NCBI GenBank assembly: GCA_022450395.1
Contig: JAKUQE010000012.1
Span: forward strand, 2,810 to 66,809
Length of the DNA stretch: 64,000 nucleotides
Reading direction: 5' to 3'
Source: Dehalococcoidia bacterium
GTDB lineage: Bacteria; Chloroflexota; Dehalococcoidia; Lucifugimonadales; UBA3495
Made by a program: the position numbers and the translations under genes. This document shows, one piece after another, positions 3,616 to 24,972 of this stretch. The notes under the pieces are model-generated. The model made no database searches. It was not told the origin of the DNA and saw only the letters and a program-made list of their open reading frames with translations. Position 1 is the stretch's first letter. Each line of letters opens with the position of its first letter.

Positions 3616-5751
3616 CTAGCCTACCCCAGCCACCTTATAGATTACGTCGCTGTTTAGGTTGGCGATAAACAAGTTGCCGGAAGCATCGAATACGATACCT
3701 TGGGGTCCGCCGAATCCGGTGCCAAAGGAAGACACACTGCCTCCCGGAGTGATCTTGGTTATGGTGCCTTGAGTGGGGTCGGCATTGGTGGCATAGACAT
3801 TTCCGGCGCCATCGGTTACCAGGTCCATGATGGCCCCGGTGAGGGTCGCGAAATTCGTAGCCGCCCCTCCGCCGATAGGCGCCACCATTACTTGGCCGGT
3901 CCTGCTGCCCGCATACAACCGTCCAGCCGGGTCAAAAGCTATTCCATCCGGATTATTCAACCCCGTAGCGTATGTCGTCACATCACCGCTCGGGGTGATC
4001 TTAGACACGATACCCGCATTGACCTGGGCCGCGTATATGTTCCCCGACGTATCGCCTGTGATTCCCGAGATTCCGGCAAGGGTGGCGATTAAAGTTTTAC
4101 TGCCTCCCCCGTTAATATCAAACCTATATATGTGACCGACAGATTGACTGACCCAACCACCCACGAAAAGCTCCCCGGTCATCGGGTCGAAGTATATGTC
4201 TATTAAATCAACGCCCCCCAGCGCCACGGATTTAATCACATTGCCCGCTGGGCCGAACATGGTTGCGATGCCGCCGACCCTGTTGATGGTGTATATGTTT
4301 CCATTTGGATCAACGGTGATTCCAGTCGGGTCCGTGATTTCAGGCGCGAAAACAGTGACCGTGAATCCCGGGACCAGTGGCCCGGATTCCGGCGTGGGGG
4401 TCGGCGTGGGTGGTAACGGCGTGGGTGTGGGAGGTACGGGAGTGGGCGTCGGAGGGACCGGCGCAGGTGTGGGAGGCACGGGGGTAGGCGGCACCGGCGT
4501 GGGAGTAGCGGTTGGCGTCGGGACTTGGGTGGGCACCGGCCTCGGGGTTGGGGTAGCCGTAGCGGCAGGTGCGAGAGTGGGAGTGGGAGTGGGAGTGGGA
4601 GTGGTGGTAGGAGTGGAAGTGGCAAAATGAACCAGAGTCGGCATTGGAACTCGCGTGGCCGAAGGCGTTCGGGTAGGGGTGGGTGTGGCGAGAGGGGTGC
4701 GAGGAGGATTGTCATCGATCCGTTGGATGATTCGTTGATCGATGAGCCGGGCGATTCTGGCTACGTCGTCCAAGTGGATCTGGCCGCGCAGGCCTCCGGC
4801 GATCAGTTGGGCGGCTATCCGGCCCTGGGCAAACCACAGCATATAGACGTCTAGATTGATCGCGGCCGATTGAACCCTCATCAAGAAACCCGCTGTAGCA
4901 TCGCCGATGGCCGGAAGGTCTATGGCCTCGACCACAACATTCTCTGAACTAAATCCGGCCCCTTCCGCGAATGCCGGACCTGCCAGTTGGGCGAACAGCT
5001 GAGGGTCCATGGCTCTCATCACCAGAACCGGCGCACTGGCATCGGAGGAGGTGGCGTACATCTCGACGGTGCTGCTGAGATTGCTCAACTGAGATAACCC
5101 TAGAGTGAAGAACAACCCCTCTGCCTCAAATTCCCGCTCGTACGTAAGGAGGGCGTCGGTATCTTCGACGTAGCCTTCTCCTCCGATGATGGCCCCGGGA
5201 GCTATGTCCGCCAAAGTAGGCAATAGGGCGGGCAGGTTGTTGGTGTCGGTGGAGGCCGTTGGCACGGGGGTCAGGGTGCGGACCGGGGTAGGCGTGGTTT
5301 CGGGGGGCCGCGTCGGTGGTACGGAGGCCGGTGGCATGGCGGTGGCTCGTACGGCGGCGGAAGGTGCGAGGGTGGATGGTGCGGCGGCGGGAGGCACGGC
5401 GATGACCCGCACCAACCTCACTATCACAGTGTGGCTGGAGTTCATGTCTATCTTGGCGGACACTCCAACTTCGTCGTAAACCGGTCCAGCCCATTAATCA
5501 ACTTGCCAGCCCTTCTTGGGCAATATATCGATCGTCACCGTGCGGCCACGCACATATCGTCCACCGTCGATGGGCGTGGGATTGAGGAGAACATCCGCTG
5601 CTTCGGGAGGGTCCGCTCTGATTTCCAATTCGTGGGTGATTGTTATTGGTGTCGGCGTAGGTGCAGGCGGTGGGACGGGCGTCGGTACGACGGCGCATGC
5701 CACCCCGGCCAGAGACGCAATAATCACCAACGAGACAATCAGACGTTGCAT
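3616..5751 (-). pseudogene. secreted Pro/Thr-linker + NHL-repeat beta-propeller protein, interrupted by in-frame TAA (5494-5496)
   Basis: ORF 5494-5751 (signal peptide MQRLIVSLVIIASLAGVAC) and ORF 3616-5463 share one frame and are separated by a single TAA. The text runs on across the stop (..ILPKKGWQVD*WAGPVYDEV..). The C-terminus has NHL-like repeats (GIAFDPAGRLYA, GIVFDASGNLFIAN). Two PTPTP linkers. Confidence 0.7.
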
Positions 5752-10929: not shown

Positions 10930-13380
<2,451 letters not shown>

Positions 13381-13391
13381 GGGATTGTCTC

Positions 13392-13751
13392 CTAGACTAC
13401 CTGATTGGGTCCGCGCCGACGGTTGGATGGGCCGTTTCGGTCCCGCAGGCGGGTGACTTCATTGGTTAGGGTTTGAACGTCGGATTCCAATTGTTCGATG
13501 CGGTTCATCAACTTTAGGGCAACTTCCGCCCCCGCCAAGTTGACGCCCATGTCCTCGGTGAGGGTTTTGATGCGATGTAGCCGTTCGATGTCGGCCATGG
13601 AGAAAAGTCTCTGCCTGCCTTCCGTTCTTGATGGCGAGATCAGGCTCACTTTCTCGTAGTAACGAAGAGTTTGGGCGTGAACTCCCACCATTCGGGCGGC
13701 TACGCTGATGACGAAACAAGGGTTCTCTCTGAATTGCTGCTCGGTGGCCAT
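13392..13751 (-). CDS. hspR: MerR-family heat-shock repressor (HspR-like)
   Basis: MerR HTH FVISVAARMVGVHAQTLRYYEKVSLISPSR. Immediately downstream of a J-domain gene, the cbpA/dnaJ-hspR arrangement known elsewhere. Confidence 0.8.
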   Translation of the reverse strand: MATEQQFRENPCFVISVAARMVGVHAQTLRYYEKVSLISPSRTEGRQRLFSMADIERLHRIKTLTEDMGVNLAGAEVALKLMNRIEQLESDVQTLTNEVTRLRDRNGPSNRRRGPNQVV

Positions 13752-13753
13752 TT

Positions 13754-14638
13754 TTAACTCCCCTTTCCGGCCCGCAATTCCTTAAAGCGGAGGAACAACT
13801 CTTGCTCCTCGGGGCTTAAGTCTGTGGGCAAGGTAACTTTGATCGTGGCGTACAGGTCTCCTTTGACATCGGGCTCGTTAAGGACCGGCATCCCCTGTCC
13901 TGCCAAGCGGAACCGGCGGCCGTTTTGAGTCTCCGGTGGAATGGTGAGCGCCAAGCGGCCGGTCAAGGTGGTGACGGCCAAGTCGCTGCCCAAGACGGCG
14001 TCTTCCAGCGGGGTCTCCACCTCGGTGTATAGGTCCCTGCCTTGCCGCCGGAATCGCGGGTGATCTTTGATGGACACAACCAGGAAGAACTCTCCTTCCG
14101 AACCACCGTCGGGGGCGAAGTGGATCTTGGAGCCGTTGTCGACGCCCGCCGGGATCTTCACTTCCAAACGGCGTCCGCCTGGCAACCCCACCAGCCGGAC
14201 GGCCCCCTTGTGGGCTTCTTCCAGAGAGATATCGACGGGATATTCGGTGGGCGGCGGTTTTGTTGGCCGTGGAGCAAAATCACGTTGCCCCATATCATTA
14301 AACAGACCTTCGAAGATGCTGCCGCCCATGCCGGAGAAGGAAACCGAGTCGTTGCCGCCCTGACCGGACCAGCGGAACCCGCCCCGGCGCCCCCGTGCCG
14401 CCTCCTCGATGCGTTCGGAGTTGGCCCAGTTGTCGCCGTGTCTATCGTACCGGCGGCGTTTGGCCTCGTCGGACAGAACGCTGTAAGCCTCGTTGATCTG
14501 CTTGAATTTTTCCTCCGACGTTTTCTCGCCACCGTTCACGTCGGGGTGGAATTGCCGGGCCATGCTGCGGTAAGCCTGCCGGATGTCTTTCTGGCTGGCA
14601 TTCCTGGGAACGCCCAATATGTCATAGAAATCGGCCAT
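13754..14638 (-). CDS. DnaJ-class co-chaperone without zinc-finger domain (CbpA-like)
   Basis: J-domain DFYDILGVPRNASQKDIRQAYRSMARQFHPD. No CxxCxGxG repeats. C-terminal substrate-binding domains. Confidence 0.9.
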   Translation of the reverse strand: MADFYDILGVPRNASQKDIRQAYRSMARQFHPDVNGGEKTSEEKFKQINEAYSVLSDEAKRRRYDRHGDNWANSERIEEAARGRRGGFRWSGQGGNDSVSFSGMGGSIFEGLFNDMGQRDFAPRPTKPPPTEYPVDISLEEAHKGAVRLVGLPGGRRLEVKIPAGVDNGSKIHFAPDGGSEGEFFLVVSIKDHPRFRRQGRDLYTEVETPLEDAVLGSDLAVTTLTGRLALTIPPETQNGRRFRLAGQGMPVLNEPDVKGDLYATIKVTLPTDLSPEEQELFLRFKELRAGKGS

Positions 14639-14665
14639 GGGAATGCTCCTGTGTTACTAGACAAC

Positions 14666-14694
14666 AGTATAGCTAAATTGATCGGTTCAGTCAA
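14666..14694 (-). promoter_or_regulatory. sigma70-type promoter TTGACT-N17-TATACT for the dnaJ-like/hspR/clpC operon
   Basis: Minus strand: -35 at 14694-14689 and -10 at 14671-14666. SD AGGAG follows, before the ATG at 14638. Confidence 0.6.
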
Positions 14695-14745
14695 TGTATC
14701 TTCTTTAATACCAGTACTTAAATTAGTTTTAATGTATAAAGATAC

Positions 14746-14774
14746 TTGACAAGAACCACTTAAGTTTATATACT
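14746..14774 (+). promoter_or_regulatory. sigma70-type promoter TTGACA-N17-TATACT for hsp20, with palindrome ACTTAAGT in the spacer
   Basis: -35 at 14746-14751 and -10 at 14769-14774, read directly. Mirror image of the minus-strand promoter. Confidence 0.65.
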
Positions 14775-14854
14775 ACGCTTTGCAAGGTAACGGAGGGTAT
14801 ACAGACCTAGCCGGAGCCGAGATTCACTTAACTTCCTTAGGAGGAATGCAGAAC

Positions 14855-15334
14855 ATGTTACTACAGCGTTGGGACCCATTATTCGACTTCAGGCGAAGGC
14901 ACTACACCACGGATCGTTTCGTGCGCGGATTTCCCCAGGCCGCGAATGGCGGGGGAATCAAGAAGTGGTCCATAGCCTTGGACGCCGTTGAGGAGGACGA
15001 CAAACTGGTCGTTCGCGCCTCTTTGCCCGGAATCGCTCCGGAGGAGATTAAAGTAACCATTGAAGACGGCGTGCTCACCATTGACGGTGAGACCAAGGTC
15101 GATGAGGAAGGAAAGGTAGGTAACTACCTGATCCGGGAGCGCCGCACCGGCTCGTTCCACCGCGCCATGCGTCTACCCGACACGGTGGACGTCGATCAGG
15201 CGGAGACGAACTACGATGAGGGCATCCTGACCGTCGCCTTTCCCAAGGTTGAGTCCAAGCGAGCCAGACAGCTCACCGTTACCAGCGGGAAGGCCGTAAC
15301 CTCCGGCCAGGAGCCGAAGAGCGACAAGAAGTAA
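14855..15334 (+). CDS. Hsp20/alpha-crystallin small heat-shock protein
   Basis: ACD-like core (LVVRASLPGIAPEEIKVTIEDGVLTIDGE...FHRAMRLP). SD AGGAGG at 14839-14844. ATG 14855 has better spacing than 14846. The track start 14780 would lie at the predicted TSS. Confidence 0.9.
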   Translation: MLLQRWDPLFDFRRRHYTTDRFVRGFPQAANGGGIKKWSIALDAVEEDDKLVVRASLPGIAPEEIKVTIEDGVLTIDGETKVDEEGKVGNYLIRERRTGSFHRAMRLPDTVDVDQAETNYDEGILTVAFPKVESKRARQLTVTSGKAVTSGQEPKSDKK

Positions 15335-15693: not shown

Positions 15694-15740
15694 TTAATGA
15701 CACTGGGGCCGCCGGCTGACTGCTTGAGGGAAAGAATACT

Positions 15741-15805
15741 TGGGTGGCCGGACCACCCAAAAAAAATAGGAGGGGAGTGTTAACACTCCCCTCCCTTCGT
15801 TTTCC
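15741..15805. terminator. bidirectional terminator: hairpin TGGGTGG/CCACCCA, A8 run, 26-nt perfect palindrome GGAGGGGAGTGTTAACACTCCCCTCC, T-rich tail
   Basis: Palindrome at 15769-15794, flanked by A8 (15759-15766) and cttcgttttcc. On the minus strand it reads hairpin + TATTTTTTTT. Confidence 0.6.
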
Positions 15806-16137
15806 TGGGGAACTCCGAAAGAGATAAATAAACCGCGGAGTCCCCCGTGAGGGAGGCACCCTGGGGGTCGGGCGCCTACGCTTGGGGAGGCGGGGATACA
15901 TACTAAGATGCCAGCCGGAGCGAGTCCGCTGTTCCACTCCTCCGTCAAACTATACGGTTCCCAAAAGCATATGGATTTACCTACAGGGACCTAAATCGAT
16001 GAGTTTTGTCCCTATCTGCCCATGAAGTCGCGGCCCAGTTCCGGTCATGGAGGACCGATACGCGGTTGAGTGTTGATCCAGTAGGTGCTAAAATTCTATC
16101 AGCCACCTTAGGGTGCGCTTTGTACCTGGCCTCACGT

Positions 16138-16212
16138 TCCCGAGTAGCTCAGCGGTAGAGCGGGCGGCTGTTAACCGCTAGGTCCGAGGTTCGAATCCTC
16201 GCTCGGGAGCCA
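16138..16212 (+). tRNA. tRNA-Asn (anticodon GTT), CCA encoded
   Basis: Cloverleaf folded by hand: acceptor TCCCGAG/CTCGGGA, anticodon loop CTGTTAA, T-arm CGAGG-TTCGAAT-CCTCG. Confidence 0.95.
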
Positions 16213-16214
16213 AA
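16168..16214 (+). repeat. 47-nt direct repeat, copy 1 (3' half of tRNA-Asn from the anticodon loop); att-like
   Basis: 46/47 identical to 17734-17780. Confidence 0.9.
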
Positions 16215-16215
16215 A

Positions 16216-16470
16216 AACTCGTAAAATGATTTCCATCAACCGAAGGATAATCCCAAAGTCGATACTGTCTCCGAACAGGGTTCACGATGACACGGGTGTA
16301 TACGTTTTGGACATCCGCGGAAGTGAGCAAGGCACCGAACCGCCGGATTGGAACGTTAAAGTTGAGGGCGTGTCGGATGTGGTGCGGCCGGGGCCCGGGT
16401 ATACGCTTCAGTAATCCAGCAGCGACGACTACCCGGACTTGACGACAGCGGAGGTCGAGATTCAGGGCAG
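16216..16470 (-). pseudogene. tyrosine recombinase (integrase) C-terminal relic
   Basis: The ORF 16178-16525 translation ..RVVVAAGLLKRIPGPRPHHIRHALNFNVPIRRFGALLTSADVQNVYTRV.. resembles the integrase catalytic end (HxLRH...LLGH....YTHV), with H replaced. The N-terminal two thirds are missing. Confidence 0.5.
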
Positions 16471-16486
16471 GGCTGTTAGCCACCGG

Positions 16487-16515
16487 CCGAGAAGCCGGGT
16501 GATTTAGGGACAGCG
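16487..16515 (+). repeat. 29-nt direct repeat copy A (CCGAGAAGCCGGGTGATTTAGGGACAGCG) containing a hairpin
   Basis: 28/29 identical to 16558-16586, with a 42-nt spacer. Confidence 0.8.
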
Positions 16516-16557
16516 TCGAAACCAATCAGGTCGAAGTCCCGGGTGGTCAGGCATCAC

Positions 16558-16586
16558 CCGAGAAGCCGGGTGATTTAGGGATAGCG
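16558..16586 (+). repeat. 29-nt direct repeat copy B, with perfect hairpin CACCCG-agaagc-CGGGTG
   Basis: See copy A. Confidence 0.8.
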
Positions 16587-16603
16587 AGAAAGATGGACGG
16601 GGC

Positions 16604-16631
16604 TTGCCTTTCGGGTACAGGCGACTACAAT
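16604..16631 (+). promoter_or_regulatory. candidate promoter TTGCCT-N16-TACAAT for the 3-ORF cassette
   Basis: Hexamers read directly. SD TAGGAGGAG follows, before ATG 16659. Confidence 0.5.
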
Positions 16632-16658
16632 GACCGGGTTATCTAGGAGGAGCTGGCA

Positions 16659-16997
16659 ATGGCAGACGACGACCCAACAGTAACACAGCCAATTCAGAGA
16701 GGGGCTCTTATTAACGCTCGTGGTAGATGGACCGGCGGAGCAGAACTTCCCCTATTGTTCGCCAACCAACTATGGGCCGCAAACTTCGGCCCGCACTTTG
16801 AATTAACTTTCGGGCATAATGAATTGCCATACGAATTAATTACCCCTGAGTTGGTAACAAAACTGGAAGAAGAAGGGGTAGAAATCAAGGCGATTTCAAG
16901 GGTTGCAGTTGGTCCAGATGAACTTGAGGCCATGATCCAGATACTTGCCGGCGTCCTGCAACAGTGGAAGGATAGGAGACCGAACGATGCCAGATGA
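16659..16997 (+). CDS. hypothetical protein (112 aa), cassette ORF1
   Basis: Strong SD. ..LLFANQLWAANFGPHFELTFGH.. is reminiscent of DUF3467-type proteins (from memory, weak). Confidence 0.6.
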   Translation: MADDDPTVTQPIQRGALINARGRWTGGAELPLLFANQLWAANFGPHFELTFGHNELPYELITPELVTKLEEEGVEIKAISRVAVGPDELEAMIQILAGVLQQWKDRRPNDAR

Positions 16998-17481
16998 ACA
17001 ATTCGCGATTATGTCAGGCTCCACAGATCGACTTCCCAGACCTTATTGGCTCCCGGACGCAGGTCATTGGAACCTAGGCGACGTTGGCGATCGAGAGTTT
17101 CAATACAATGTGCTCGAACGTGGGGGCGTCGTGATTCTGGGTGGCGAAATATCTGGCACAGTAATAGCAGGCAGCGGCGAGATAAATATTCGCTATGCTC
17201 CTGTACCTCGTTACGCTTTGCAGAACGAAGTCGAAGCACTCTACGAGAGAATAGCAGCGCTTGAAGCGCAGGCGATCGCCGAACCAGAGCCTCTACGGGA
17301 GATCCCGAAAGACCAAGCGCGGGAAGAAATAAGAGCACTGTTTAGCGAAGGTGGGATTATATATATGTCCGATGTCGCTGATCGCTTAAACTTACCCGAT
17401 GAGCTGGTCGTAGAGATTTGTTTAGAGTTAGAAGGCGCAGGGGAGTTGAATCGTCGTGACAACGCAGTGGACGCTCGGTGA
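16987..17481 (+). CDS. hypothetical protein (164 aa), cassette ORF2; coiled-coil plus possible C-terminal winged helix
   Basis: SD AGGAGA before ATG 16987, overlapping the ORF1 stop by 11 nt. C-terminus IYMSDVADRLNLPDELVVEICLELEGAGEL looks wHTH-like. Confidence 0.6.
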   Translation: MPDEQFAIMSGSTDRLPRPYWLPDAGHWNLGDVGDREFQYNVLERGGVVILGGEISGTVIAGSGEINIRYAPVPRYALQNEVEALYERIAALEAQAIAEPEPLREIPKDQAREEIRALFSEGGIIYMSDVADRLNLPDELVVEICLELEGAGELNRRDNAVDAR

Positions 17482-17656
17482 CGGCATTAAGGGAAATCGG
17501 ATTATTGTTGTAGCTGAGAGTATCCGAAAAGATCCGGGGAAAAGGATCAAACTCACATCGGCGCATACTGGGGAGAGGGCTAGGGCACGCGGTGAGGCCT
17601 ACGCCTATATCGACAAAGCTTTCGAATCCGTGCCTCGCTCCGCGCGGCCTAGATAG
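17456..17656 (+). CDS. hypothetical protein (66 aa), cassette ORF3
   Basis: GTG start overlapping ORF2 by 26 nt. Basic protein. Weak support. Confidence 0.35.
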   Translation: MTTQWTLGDGIKGNRIIVVAESIRKDPGKRIKLTSAHTGERARARGEAYAYIDKAFESVPRSARPR

Positions 17657-17688
17657 CAACATTTATTAACTGATCGGGGTCGAAAACA

Positions 17689-17722
17689 GGAGGGCGCCAG
17701 GCCGTGCCTCCGTTCGGTTTTT
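17689..17722 (+). terminator. hairpin GGAGG...CCTCC followed by gttcggttttt
   Basis: Lies between cassette ORF3 and the right-hand tRNA repeat. Confidence 0.5.
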
Positions 17723-17733
17723 GACGCGGACAA

Positions 17734-17780
17734 CTGTTAACTGCTAGGTCCGAGGTTCGAATCCTCGCTCGGGAGCCAAA
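17734..17780 (+). repeat. 47-nt direct repeat, copy 2 (displaced 3' half of tRNA-Asn); att-like
   Basis: ctgttaactgctaggtccgaggttcgaatcctcgctcgggagccaaa. One mismatch to the intact tRNA. No 5' half present. Confidence 0.9.
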
Positions 17781-18234: not shown

Positions 18235-18423
18235 GGTCAATATAACGGCGGCGAACACGCCTTAATGGCTGGTATAGTCCAGGCACAAATATCGTAGAGC
18301 GTTCGATAGACAGTCGCGGGAATCATCTTTATTTCTCTAAAATTACCCTTGATGCCCAGACCCTTGCCATTCCCGCGCCCACTAGATAGACTCGGCTCAT
18401 AACAATTTAGGAGCCTTTATCGA

Positions 18424-19425
18424 ATGGCAGAGCAGATCCATCCCAATATTGTTGCCCGGACTGTTGGAAGAGAATCGGTGCTAACCGTAGTCGGCGCCGC
18501 ACCGGACGCTAGGGGGCCGTGGTCTTTCATAACTGGGATACCGAACCCCGGCTTCGATATGGTTGGGCCTCCTGCCCAATACCTGTCGGTGGCTGCTTGG
18601 GCCGCTTGAACCGTGGTCACGGTGGTAGGCGTGGCCTACCGTGGCAACATCGCCCTGGAAGACATCATGGTCGATTTTGAGGTGGAGGCGGTTGAGCTTC
18701 CCAATGCGATCGGGTTCGGTGTTAGGGAACTTGTCACCCTGAAAGGCCGGATATCGGAGCCGGAGCGGGTCCGGCTTGAGCGGGCTTCCCGGTATTGCCC
18801 AGTTGGACAGGCTCTGACCAAGGGTTCCATGGAGATCGAGGATGAGATTCGATGGAGCAATGGTGAGGTGGCCTCAGCCTCTCCATTGACGGAATCCCTT
18901 CCCCCTTCGGACTGGGCTCTACCCGCCATACCTACCGGATCCGTCCATGGCCGATACCTTCTGGACACAAAAGAGTACGACGATGAAGGGAAGATGGAGC
19001 ACGAAGGGGAGGCCAAGATTTCCATCCAATGCCAAAACCTGACTCGGACAAGCCGCTGGACCATACTCGGCGGACATAGCTCTGAAGGCTGGGTAACGCC
19101 ACCGTTTCCCTTGGGCCACGCTGGGTGGGCAGCATCGACCGTTTCTACATTGAGCCGTCTGTTGCCCCAAGGGACGGAAGACGCAGATGGCCTCAGTGTG
19201 GAGTTGTATATGGCGGCCGGTGGCGGCGGTAGGGGGCAGTCCCAGTCCAACGCCGCCGAGGGCGTGGTGGCTCGCCGCGGGGTAACGCGCCGGATAATGG
19301 TGCCCGGAACTCCCAGCACCACCCCGATCGAGGCGGTACAAGCGGCGCTTCAACGCGACCCGATAACACTGGCCTACCTGAACGGGGGCGTACTTTTACA
19401 TGACGAGGTGGTGGTAGAGTCGTAG
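18424..19425 (+). CDS. OsmC/Ohr-like hydroperoxidase-family protein with in-frame TGA (18607-18609) at the first catalytic Cys position; candidate selenoprotein with a second degenerate OsmC-like half
   Basis: Track ORFs 18424-18609 and 18613-19425 share one frame. SD AGGAG precedes ATG 18424 and none precedes GTG 18613. The joined text is ..PPAQYLSVAAWAA[TGA]TVVTVVGVAY..RASRYCPVGQAL... A hairpin lies downstream. Confidence 0.7.
18618..18643 (+). promoter_or_regulatory. SECIS-like hairpin CAC-ggt-GGTAGGC-gtg-GCCTACC-GTG
   Basis: 7-bp upper stem, GTG loop, 3-nt 5' bulge, 3-bp lower stem. The loop lies 21 nt after the TGA. Confidence 0.5.
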
Positions 19426-19454: not shown

Positions 19455-20261
19455 CTACGCTTTCAAGAACTCAATGATGTTGTCGCATACCTCTTCGAAC
19501 CGCTCCATCATCACGAGATGCCTGGCGCCTTTGATGACCACCAACCGCCCGTTCTGAACCCCTTCGGCTATGCCCCGTCCACCTATGCCTTGGGGGCCGG
19601 TGTCGACGGGGGAGTTGGCCGAGAACTCGCCGTTGATGACCAGGGTTGGGGCGGTGATGTTAGGTAGGTCTGGCCCCAGGTCGACGTCGTCACAGGCTTC
19701 CGAGGTCGCGATATACGTCTCCGGGGATATCTCGCAAAACGTCGACCGCATCTGGTCCAGTAAAGGGCCGGCTTCGGGACTGTCCAGAAAGTTTGAGGTC
19801 AGCACCGCCTGGGCCGTCAGTTCGGCGACCGCGATCATGCCTACGTTGGCGGCCAGGGCTTTGGCGAGTTTGCGGTTAAGGCGAAGCGCCGTATCGTATT
19901 TGGCCACCACTCCCACCAGCGCCATCTTTTTCACCCGCTCCGGGTGTTGCGCCGCGAATTGTATGGCAACCAAGCCCCCGGTGGATGTTCCGTGCAGATG
20001 GGCTTGCGGGATATCCAGAATGTCCATCAGATCGCGCAGGTCGTTGGTCCAGTCCTGCACCTTGTATCCCGGCGGCGTTGGGGTGCTCTTTCCGGTGCCC
20101 ACCAGATCGTAATCGATCACCCGGAAGTGGCGGGACAGGACCGGCGTGACCTTGGAGAAATTCTTCAATCCCAAAGCGCCGCCGGGGATCTGCACCAATG
20201 GCTCGCCTTCGCCGTTGATCTCGTACCAGATACGTTTCTCGCCTAGATCGGCAAATGGCAT
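19455..20261 (-). CDS. alpha/beta hydrolase
   Basis: Nucleophile elbow HGTSTGG, C-terminal GARHLVMME. Confidence 0.85.
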   Translation of the reverse strand: MPFADLGEKRIWYEINGEGEPLVQIPGGALGLKNFSKVTPVLSRHFRVIDYDLVGTGKSTPTPPGYKVQDWTNDLRDLMDILDIPQAHLHGTSTGGLVAIQFAAQHPERVKKMALVGVVAKYDTALRLNRKLAKALAANVGMIAVAELTAQAVLTSNFLDSPEAGPLLDQMRSTFCEISPETYIATSEACDDVDLGPDLPNITAPTLVINGEFSANSPVDTGPQGIGGRGIAEGVQNGRLVVIKGARHLVMMERFEEVCDNIIEFLKA

Positions 20262-23587: not shown

Positions 23588-23976
23588 CCAGTCCTTGATG
23601 CGGCGGGCCGCGAGTCCACTCGCGAACTTGGCCGCTGCTGACGCAAATGCTTATGGGGCTAACATATATCCGCCACCCTGCCCCCGGCTCCCAAGCTTGG
23701 AGGGCTAAACAAAGATAGATGGTCATCGACACCGAGGCGAAGAATCGAGTATAACTGCCGTTCATCTACCTCAGCAAACCGGACATCTAATGAACTCAGC
23801 TGTTGTGTTCTGGGGCCGGAACCTAAATATTATTGATGAAGCGCGTGGGCGGCAAAATCAATAGCCGTCAATCTGACAGAAAGAGCTTCGGACCGTAGCG
23901 GTGGACAAGCCGCCCACCCCGACGTAACATGCGCCATGTTGGCAGCGGGGCGATTGCCGCCAGGCGAGGTGAATTC

Positions 23977-24972
23977 ATGGAACGGATCGGGCTTTCTTTC
24001 TCTGGGGGTCTCAATCCGCCGGATATAGTGGACTGTATCCAGCTTGCCGATGAGTTGGGGTATGAATCGGCGTGGATGGCCGAGGGGCATGGGGGTGATC
24101 AGTTCTCAATCCTGACCGCCTGCGCTCTCAGGACCAAGAATATCCTGCTGGGCACCAGCATCACCAGCGTTTTCGTCCGTAGCGCCCCTACCATCGCCAT
24201 GGCCGCCGCATCGGTGGACCACTTTTCTCAGGGGAGGTTCGTGCTGGGTTTGGGAACCAGCCACAAGGTCCAGGTGGAGCCGGAGCATGGGTTGGTGTTC
24301 GAAAAGGCGGTGCCTCGCCTGCGGGAGTGCGTTGAGATCGTTCGGGAGTTGTTGCAAAAGGGCGAGGTGTCCTATCAGGGTAGCGTGTACGACATAGAAA
24401 ACTTCGACTTTTGGTTCGAGCCTTTGCGAAGGGAGATACCAATATATGTGGCCGCCGTTTTCCCTAAGATGCTCGAGGTCTGCGGAGAGATCGCCCAAGG
24501 CGCCCTGATGACTTGGTGCACCCTGGAGCATGCTGAGACCGCGGCGGCCCACGTGGCAGAGGGGGCGAAACGGGCCGGGCGCGACCCCAGCGAGGTAGAC
24601 GTGGCTACGCTGATGCCTTGCGCGGTGGGTAGCTCGGGCGAAGGGGCCATTGCGGGACTGAAGACCAACATCGCCAGGTACGCCGCCAAGTTCCCCCGGT
24701 ACCGCAAGTTGATGGAGGACGCCGGCTTCGCCGAGGAACTCCAAGCGGTGCGCCGTGCCTGGAATGACGGCAATGAAGCGGAAGCCATCTCATTGGTCCC
24801 CGACGAACTCGTCGACTCCATCGCGCTGGTGGGTAGCGCCGAAAAAGCCAGGAGCCGGCTGGATGAGTATCGCCGCGCGGGCATCACCCAGCCGATCATT
24901 TCTCCCCGGGTTTCCGGCGAAAACTCCAAAGAAGAAGCGATGCAGATCATCCGGGCGTGCGCGCCTAGATAG
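23977..24972 (+). CDS. LLM-class (luciferase-like) flavin/F420-dependent oxidoreductase
   Basis: MERIGLSFSG..ADELGYESAWMAEGH. SD GAGGTG before ATG 23977. Confidence 0.85.
   Translation: MERIGLSFSGGLNPPDIVDCIQLADELGYESAWMAEGHGGDQFSILTACALRTKNILLGTSITSVFVRSAPTIAMAAASVDHFSQGRFVLGLGTSHKVQVEPEHGLVFEKAVPRLRECVEIVRELLQKGEVSYQGSVYDIENFDFWFEPLRREIPIYVAAVFPKMLEVCGEIAQGALMTWCTLEHAETAAAHVAEGAKRAGRDPSEVDVATLMPCAVGSSGEGAIAGLKTNIARYAAKFPRYRKLMEDAGFAEELQAVRRAWNDGNEAEAISLVPDELVDSIALVGSAEKARSRLDEYRRAGITQPIISPRVSGENSKEEAMQIIRACAPR

Follow-up and report, generated by a model that had tools for sequence, protein, structure and literature searches.

OsmC-like selenoproteins have been reported from the Sargasso Sea as three sequences assigned to COG1765 and bearing a UxxT motif (Zhang, Fomenko & Gladyshev 2005), and from GOS as five sequences (Zhang & Gladyshev 2008). 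The published family, described as COG1765/YhfA and PF02566 with the representatives MBR72571.1, MCS5647933.1 and AACY01145085, has since been entered in reviews of 2022 and 2026. The bacterial SECIS (bSECIS) model (PMC13188914) specifies a stem of 4-16 bp, a loop of 3-9 nt with G at its first two positions (usually G[G/U]N), a distance of 16-37 nt between UGA and loop, and a minimum free energy (MFE) no higher than -7.5 kcal/mol. Selenoproteins and a distinctive tRNA-Sec are present in Chloroflexi, and two Dehalococcoidia MAGs with 49 and 46 selenoprotein genes, respectively, rank among the ten most selenoprotein-rich bacteria known. A search of a literature library found no paper linking SAR202 with selenoproteins.

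We analysed a 64,000-nt stretch of Dehalococcoidia DNA (the window), the closest named relative of which is an uncultured Dehalococcoidia MAG with 95% identity. Region 18424-19425 very probably encodes one 333-residue OsmC/Ohr-type selenoprotein, in which UGA-62 would be decoded as selenocysteine (Sec) by means of a SECIS hairpin, and which would fold into a single-chain pseudo-dimer. The features of this region are as follows:

18409-18413, plus strand: Shine-Dalgarno-like AGGAG, 10 nt 5' of the ATG at 18424, read from the sequence.
18424-19425, plus strand: complete coding sequence of 333 codons including UGA-62, plus the TAG stop; one frame with a sole internal TGA.
18424-18867, plus strand: repeat 1 (residues 1-148), OsmC/Ohr-fold domain with U62 and C125, from PF02566 and Foldseek matches.
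18607-18609, plus strand: in-frame UGA, predicted Sec codon 62 at the peroxidatic position.
18620-18644, plus strand: SECIS-like hairpin, with stem 18622-18630 paired to 18634-18642, loop GUG 18631-18633 and outer pair C18620-G18644, from covariation and the bSECIS model.
18796-18798, plus strand: TGC for Cys125 in the CPVGQ motif, predicted resolving Cys, invariant in the family.
18901-19422, plus strand: repeat 2 (residues 160-333), degenerate OsmC-like, with Ser238 (19135-19137) and Asp312 at the catalytic positions, from hhalign and the structural model.

Direct translation of 18424-19425 gave 334 codons, with a single internal stop at TGA 18607-18609 (codon 62) and the terminal TAG at 19423-19425. 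The two open reading frames that the first-pass annotation had described as one frame split only by this TGA are thus continuous, and the joined peptide reads, as proposed there, ...YLSVAAWAA-TGA-TVVTVVGVAYRG...RYCPVGQAL..., with both hallmark regions of the OsmC/Ohr proteins. The AGGAG motif precedes the ATG, compared to no Shine-Dalgarno-like motif upstream of the GTG at 18613, from which the ORF finder starts a 270-codon piece; this difference between the two starts had also been pointed out before. The same annotation had expected gene callers to report only a truncated product, and they indeed give a piece of ~262-272 aa and a separate ORF of 61-69 aa.

A search of 5.8 billion proteins yielded 264 clusters at 90% identity, the source names of which include SAR202 cluster bacterium and Dehalococcoidia bacterium. 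Almost all clusters are 262-272 aa long with a query coverage of ~80%, indicating that these proteins are cut at the same place. Among the 84 loci that were fetched, 73 span the TGA site, and all 73 carry TGA as the site codon, at tblastn protein identities down to about 49%. Neither the cysteine codons TGC and TGT, which the first-pass annotation had considered for this site, nor TAA or TAG occur in any of them. The flanks are conserved as well, reading ..YLSVAAWAA-TGA-TVVT[VL]VGVA... Since TGA terminates seven of the 42 confident genes in the window, it is an ordinary stop there, and its fixation at codon 62 would be unexpected for a real terminator; the possibility that TGA serves as a general sense codon in the window was rejected on the same count. 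The same TGA in 73 of 73 loci is far beyond chance. Moreover, the codon-position entropies of the 32 codons upstream of the TGA (0.51/0.36/1.35) match those of the 66 codons downstream (0.53/0.31/1.40), which indicates that purifying selection acts alike, and in one frame, on both pieces.

The lone full-length hit among the proteins, P0005 (332 aa, named 'OsmC-like protein'), has a Trp at position 62, encoded by TGA at 297-299 of locus L001. This Trp is an annotation artefact, as the JGI call on a short contig used an alternative genetic code that reads TGA as Trp. A crude scan for other TGA-split ORFs in the window found only antisense cases or ordinary stops, and a same-frame gene pair in locus L002 was rejected as a second split gene, the separator being TAA, not TGA. 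The third position of the Ala codon GCU (18604-18606) directly before the UGA is near-invariant, with an entropy (H) of 0.20, where other fourfold sites average 1.57; it may reflect a context requirement for Sec decoding or belong to a wider RNA structure.

For the Pfam profile search, Cys was put in at codon 62 of the joined translation. The OsmC profile PF02566 matched residues 51-138, across the TGA, with 30.5 bits against a gathering cut-off of 27.5, and an NCBIfam search of the joined protein gave no match. The phmmer matches among PDB sequences are Ohr and OsmC proteins. In these alignments, residue 62 shares a column with the first catalytic Cys of 4noz (..AGYSACFIGA..), 4mh4 (..AGWSACFIGA..) and 9wo1 (..AGLGACTAMT..), and Cys125 shares a column with the second catalytic Cys (..VCPYS.. 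/ ..KCPV..) of the same three proteins. The TGA therefore occupies the position of the first catalytic Cys, with the CPV motif following later, in line with what had been read from the sequence alone.

P0005 was run exhaustively by phmmer against 1.84 billion representatives, and the low number of hits, 109, indicates a small family. The most remote of its full-length members, namely P0122, P0127, P0129, P0139, P0130 and P0152 (297-361 aa, 33-45% identity), have a Cys at the TGA position in the context ..GWAACT.VT..GVA.RG.., and the DNA codon of this Cys in the distant homologues is TGT or TGC. Comparison at codon 62 thus pairs TGA in the close loci with Cys in the distant full-length homologues.

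Ohr proteins use a Cys-Arg-Glu triad, in which the peroxidatic Cys follows the catalytic Glu at a distance of ~10 residues. In 4noz (..NPEQLFAAGYSAC..), this Glu falls in the column of Gln52 of the window protein, a position that varies among Gln, Glu, Ala and Pro in the loci, which argues for an active-site chemistry that is not canonical for Ohr. Judged by these alignments, the window protein is a member of the OsmC/Ohr superfamily, not a canonical Ohr.

Alignment of the N-terminal half of the family against its C-terminal half by hhalign gave a probability of 96.3% and an E-value of 1.7e-9 over 128 columns. It pairs ..AAWAA-U-TVVT.. with ..AGWAA-S-TVST.., and ..YCPVGQAL.. with ..RDPITLAY.., from which the second half is seen to be an OsmC repeat with neither catalytic residue left, as the earlier suggestion of a second OsmC-like repeat devoid of Cys had implied. 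In the AlphaFold model of the homologue P0005, computed from a 48-sequence alignment (pLDDT 92.9, pTM 0.93), the order of strands and helices occurs twice, and the helix formed by residues 51-73 runs unbroken through residue 62. Structural similarity search against the PDB using Foldseek revealed that every meaningful match is an Ohr or OsmC protein, with a probability of ~1 and TM-scores, normalised to the target, of 0.45-0.63. OsmC and Ohr enzymes are homodimers. We therefore infer from the tandem repeat a single-chain pseudo-dimer with one active site, in which the second repeat probably takes the place that the partner subunit has in ordinary OsmC/Ohr homodimers.

The SECIS-like hairpin has a core of 7 bp, in which 18624-18630 pairs with 18634-18640 (GGUAGGC-GUG-GCCUACC), and its loop starts 21 nt after the UGA. 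The first-pass annotation had drawn a hairpin at 18618-18643 with a G-containing loop at this distance, which it took to suit a bacterial SECIS, and had added a lower CAC/GUG stem with a GGU bulge. The loop and the upper part (18624-18640) stand, whereas the bulged lower helix was rejected, as its A-U pair forms in only 20 of 54 sequences; the conserved stem runs through G18622-U18642 and U18623-G18641 instead.

In an ungapped alignment of 54 distinct 63-nt segments, the core stem is paired in 99.5% of cells. The middle core pair (27-37) is A-U in 31 segments, C-G in 10, G-U in eight, G-C in two and U-G in one, and it changes by a synonymous Val codon substitution coupled to a Tyr/Asp/His replacement on the opposite arm. 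One-sided changes in the other core pairs keep a G-U wobble every time. RNAalifold added the invariant pair U18623-G18641, together with G18622-U18642 and C18620-G18644. The pair G18622-U18642 (22-42) occurs as GU in 18, UA in 11 and UG in 10 segments, and is paired in 42 of the 54. The revised structure is 97.2% paired, compared to 91.0 +/- 0.9 in shuffles, none of 500 of which reached this value, and 19-67% with the partners slid. Its covariation score is 0.194 versus 0.084.

With a GUN loop, a stem of 7-9 bp, a spacing of 21 nt and an MFE of -11.7 kcal/mol, the window hairpin fits the bSECIS model, and 57 of 59 distinct sequences pass every published criterion of the model. Three Cys forms, which served as negative controls, are without the hairpin: 3-4 of nine stem positions are broken, and the MFE values are -5.1, -6.4 and -8.4, compared to a mean of -12.8 for the TGA forms. 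The MFE of a wider 66-nt segment is unexceptional against shuffles (z -0.72), which means that the hairpin draws its support from comparison rather than from thermodynamics. Rfam returned no match at gathering or permissive thresholds, a null result that is uninformative, since no bacterial SECIS family was matched or appears to be present in Rfam.

We propose that this hairpin would serve SelB loaded with Sec-tRNA(Sec) as a bacterial SECIS, by which UGA-62 would be decoded as Sec. Only the first repeat would keep the redox pair, with Sec62 as the peroxidatic residue on the long helix and Cys125 as the resolving residue, and the second repeat has Ser and Asp at the catalytic positions. Upon reduction of a hydroperoxide, Sec62 would be converted to a selenenic acid, which would in turn form a selenenylsulfide with Cys125. 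A thiol or lipoyl donor would then regenerate the enzyme.

An unlikely alternative to Sec insertion is that UGA-62 is recoded to another residue, either by a SelB-like factor that the hairpin recruits with a tRNA-Sec-like tRNA charged with Cys or another amino acid, or by near-cognate read-through with Trp, Cys or Arg that the hairpin simply promotes. It is consistent with the results of the machinery search, which combined ARAGORN on the window and 46 loci with SelD and SelA motif scans of 506 kb, and in which no selA, selB, selD or tRNA-Sec was found in the window and 506 kb of flanks. In addition, tRNA-Sec-like tRNAs of unusual structure are known in bacteria including Chloroflexi, some of them from tRNA-Sec searches. 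As these flanks are a small and redundant sample of the carrying genomes, the lack of sel genes there is uninformative rather than negative; ten further genomic places of P0252, which hold no sel genes, proved to be one species cluster. Support for the Sec machinery is thus indirect, at the level of Chloroflexi and the class Dehalococcoidia, for which reason a small probability is kept for recoding to a residue other than Sec. Against such recoding, the site is that of a catalytic Cys in a thiol peroxidase family, a typical place for Sec; the hairpin, with a loop that begins with G-U, fits the bSECIS model of the SelB type; the Dehalococcoidia are documented heavy users of Sec; and TGA is not a general sense codon in the window. 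The more specific proposal that the SAR202 hairpin recodes UGA to a non-Sec residue, for instance Cys via a tRNA-Sec-like tRNA and a SelB-like factor, is quite improbable. If true, the SECIS mechanism would here be put to a use that does not depend on selenium, and this use would be fixed throughout an ocean lineage of global abundance.

It is very unlikely that the hairpin is a by-product of the conserved peptide VVGVAYRG and has no RNA function. The stem does lie inside this peptide, with first or second codon positions making up most of its columns. However, the two non-covarying fourfold sites in the stem are near-frozen (H 0.12 in GGC and 0.20 in GCC, whereas 36 further fourfold sites of the segment average 1.57), the two variable stem positions change in a compensatory manner, and Cys forms with a like peptide (VTGVAHRG, SVGVAYRG) are without the stem.

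That TGA is a true stop, yielding a 61-aa peptide and a 270-aa protein from an internal GTG, or marking a decaying pseudogene or an assembly error, agrees with every standard gene caller and with the presence of GTG codons downstream, but appears extremely unlikely and effectively refuted by the comparative data, given that TGA is fixed in 73/73 loci from many independent assemblies and never replaced by TAA or TAG, that the GTG has no Shine-Dalgarno motif, that the upstream codons are under equal purifying selection in the same frame, that a stop would halve helix 51-73 and lose the catalytic residue, and that the Cys forms read as a single protein.

The gene for the predicted selenoprotein (the OsmC-Sec gene) appears to be monocistronic. 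Its neighbours in the window encode an alpha/beta hydrolase and an MsrA on the opposite strand, as well as an NB-ARC/TPR protein and a luciferase-like monooxygenase. In divergent genomes, an alpha/beta-hydrolase gene adjoins or lies near the OsmC-Sec gene (19455-20261, minus strand, in the window; 4213-4998, minus strand, in L003; 11098-11859, plus strand, in L092), and genes for luciferase-like monooxygenases recur nearby (23929-24972 in the window; 7360-9647 in L002; 1284-1673 and 2928-4154 in L003). The gene vicinity in L002, L003 and L092 thus holds luciferase-like monooxygenases and alpha/beta hydrolases, and these recurrent neighbours may be functionally associated with the OsmC-Sec gene. 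The 3.9-Mb genome of L002, which has the Sec form, also encodes an ordinary single-domain OsmC (177 aa) 5 kb downstream, with a rhodanese gene directly after it (15700-17006).

An insertion of ~1.57 kb (16138-17780) sits between the tRNA-Asn gene (16138-16212) and the OsmC-Sec gene of the window when this is compared with L004 and L007, two loci of 91% identity. On either side it is flanked by a copy of the tRNA 3' end (16168-16214 and 17734-17780), and this 47-bp direct repeat (97.9% identical) looks like an att duplication from an element integrated at the tRNA gene. The ORFs of the insertion (112, 178 and 66 aa) gave no Pfam hit, and no integrase was found within it. A relative with 77% identity, L014 (619-988), shows the tRNA-Asn 3' end duplicated at a shorter distance or length (650-696 and 930-988), which suggests repeated integration or excision at tRNA-Asn. 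Further upstream, a heat-shock block (10930-15334) contains ORFs on the minus strand for ClpB-like (816 aa), MerR/HspR-like (119 aa) and DnaJ-like (294 aa) proteins, assigned by their N-terminal sequences only, followed by an HSP20 gene on the plus strand (14780-15334, Pfam).

The dark ocean counts SAR202 among its most abundant bacteria. Practically all public annotations split or truncate the family described here, which is misannotated in hundreds of public genomes; owing to the truncation, the catalytic residue and the 61 N-terminal residues are absent from the databases, and the product is often called 'hypothetical'. As no Cys form occurs among the 73 marine loci, the predicted Sec peroxidase is apparently obligate across the lineage, and a correct annotation would imply a selenium requirement in the SAR202/Dehalococcoidia carriers. 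In addition, the protein would be a natural single-chain version of the OsmC/Ohr dimer with a single active site, possibly useful for mechanistic work. The finding is of practical value chiefly for annotation and for SAR202 selenium biology, and the knowledge of Sec decoding is left unchanged.

Compared to SECIS elements of the E. coli fdhF type and the bSECISearch model, the window hairpin likewise lies inside the coding region and has a small apical loop starting with G-U. They differ in that the window loop has 3 nt, the minimum of the model, and in that the family alignment revealed neither a conserved bulged U nor a lower helix.

The nearest solved relatives of the window protein by sequence are Ohr and OsmC proteins, and Ohr (4noz, 6ebg, 1zb8, 1n2f) provides the best matches in both sequence and structure, with the same fold. 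As in Ohr, the peroxidatic position sits on a long helix, and the resolving Cys lies in a C-P motif at a helix kink. Unlike Ohr, the window protein has a predicted Sec in place of the peroxidatic Cys, and the position of the catalytic Glu is taken by a variable Gln, Glu, Ala or Pro in its family. Moreover, Ohr is a homodimer with two active sites, compared to the single-chain tandem of the window protein.

As in the published OsmC-like selenoproteins, the OsmC-superfamily domain of the window family contains an in-frame UGA that a SECIS-like hairpin closely follows; Cys homologues and a marine origin are likewise shared. The UxxT motif of the published proteins is replaced in the window protein by U-T-V-V-T, which has Thr at +1 and +4 and Val at +3. 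With its 333 residues and degenerate second repeat, the window protein is set apart from the published OsmC-like selenoproteins as these are described, and its family comprises 264 clusters in SAR202/Dehalococcoidia, compared to the three and five published sequences. Altogether, the predicted replacement is a Sec-for-Cys swap at the catalytic site of a thiol peroxidase with a standard bSECIS, of a kind that has been known from OsmC-like selenoproteins since 2005.
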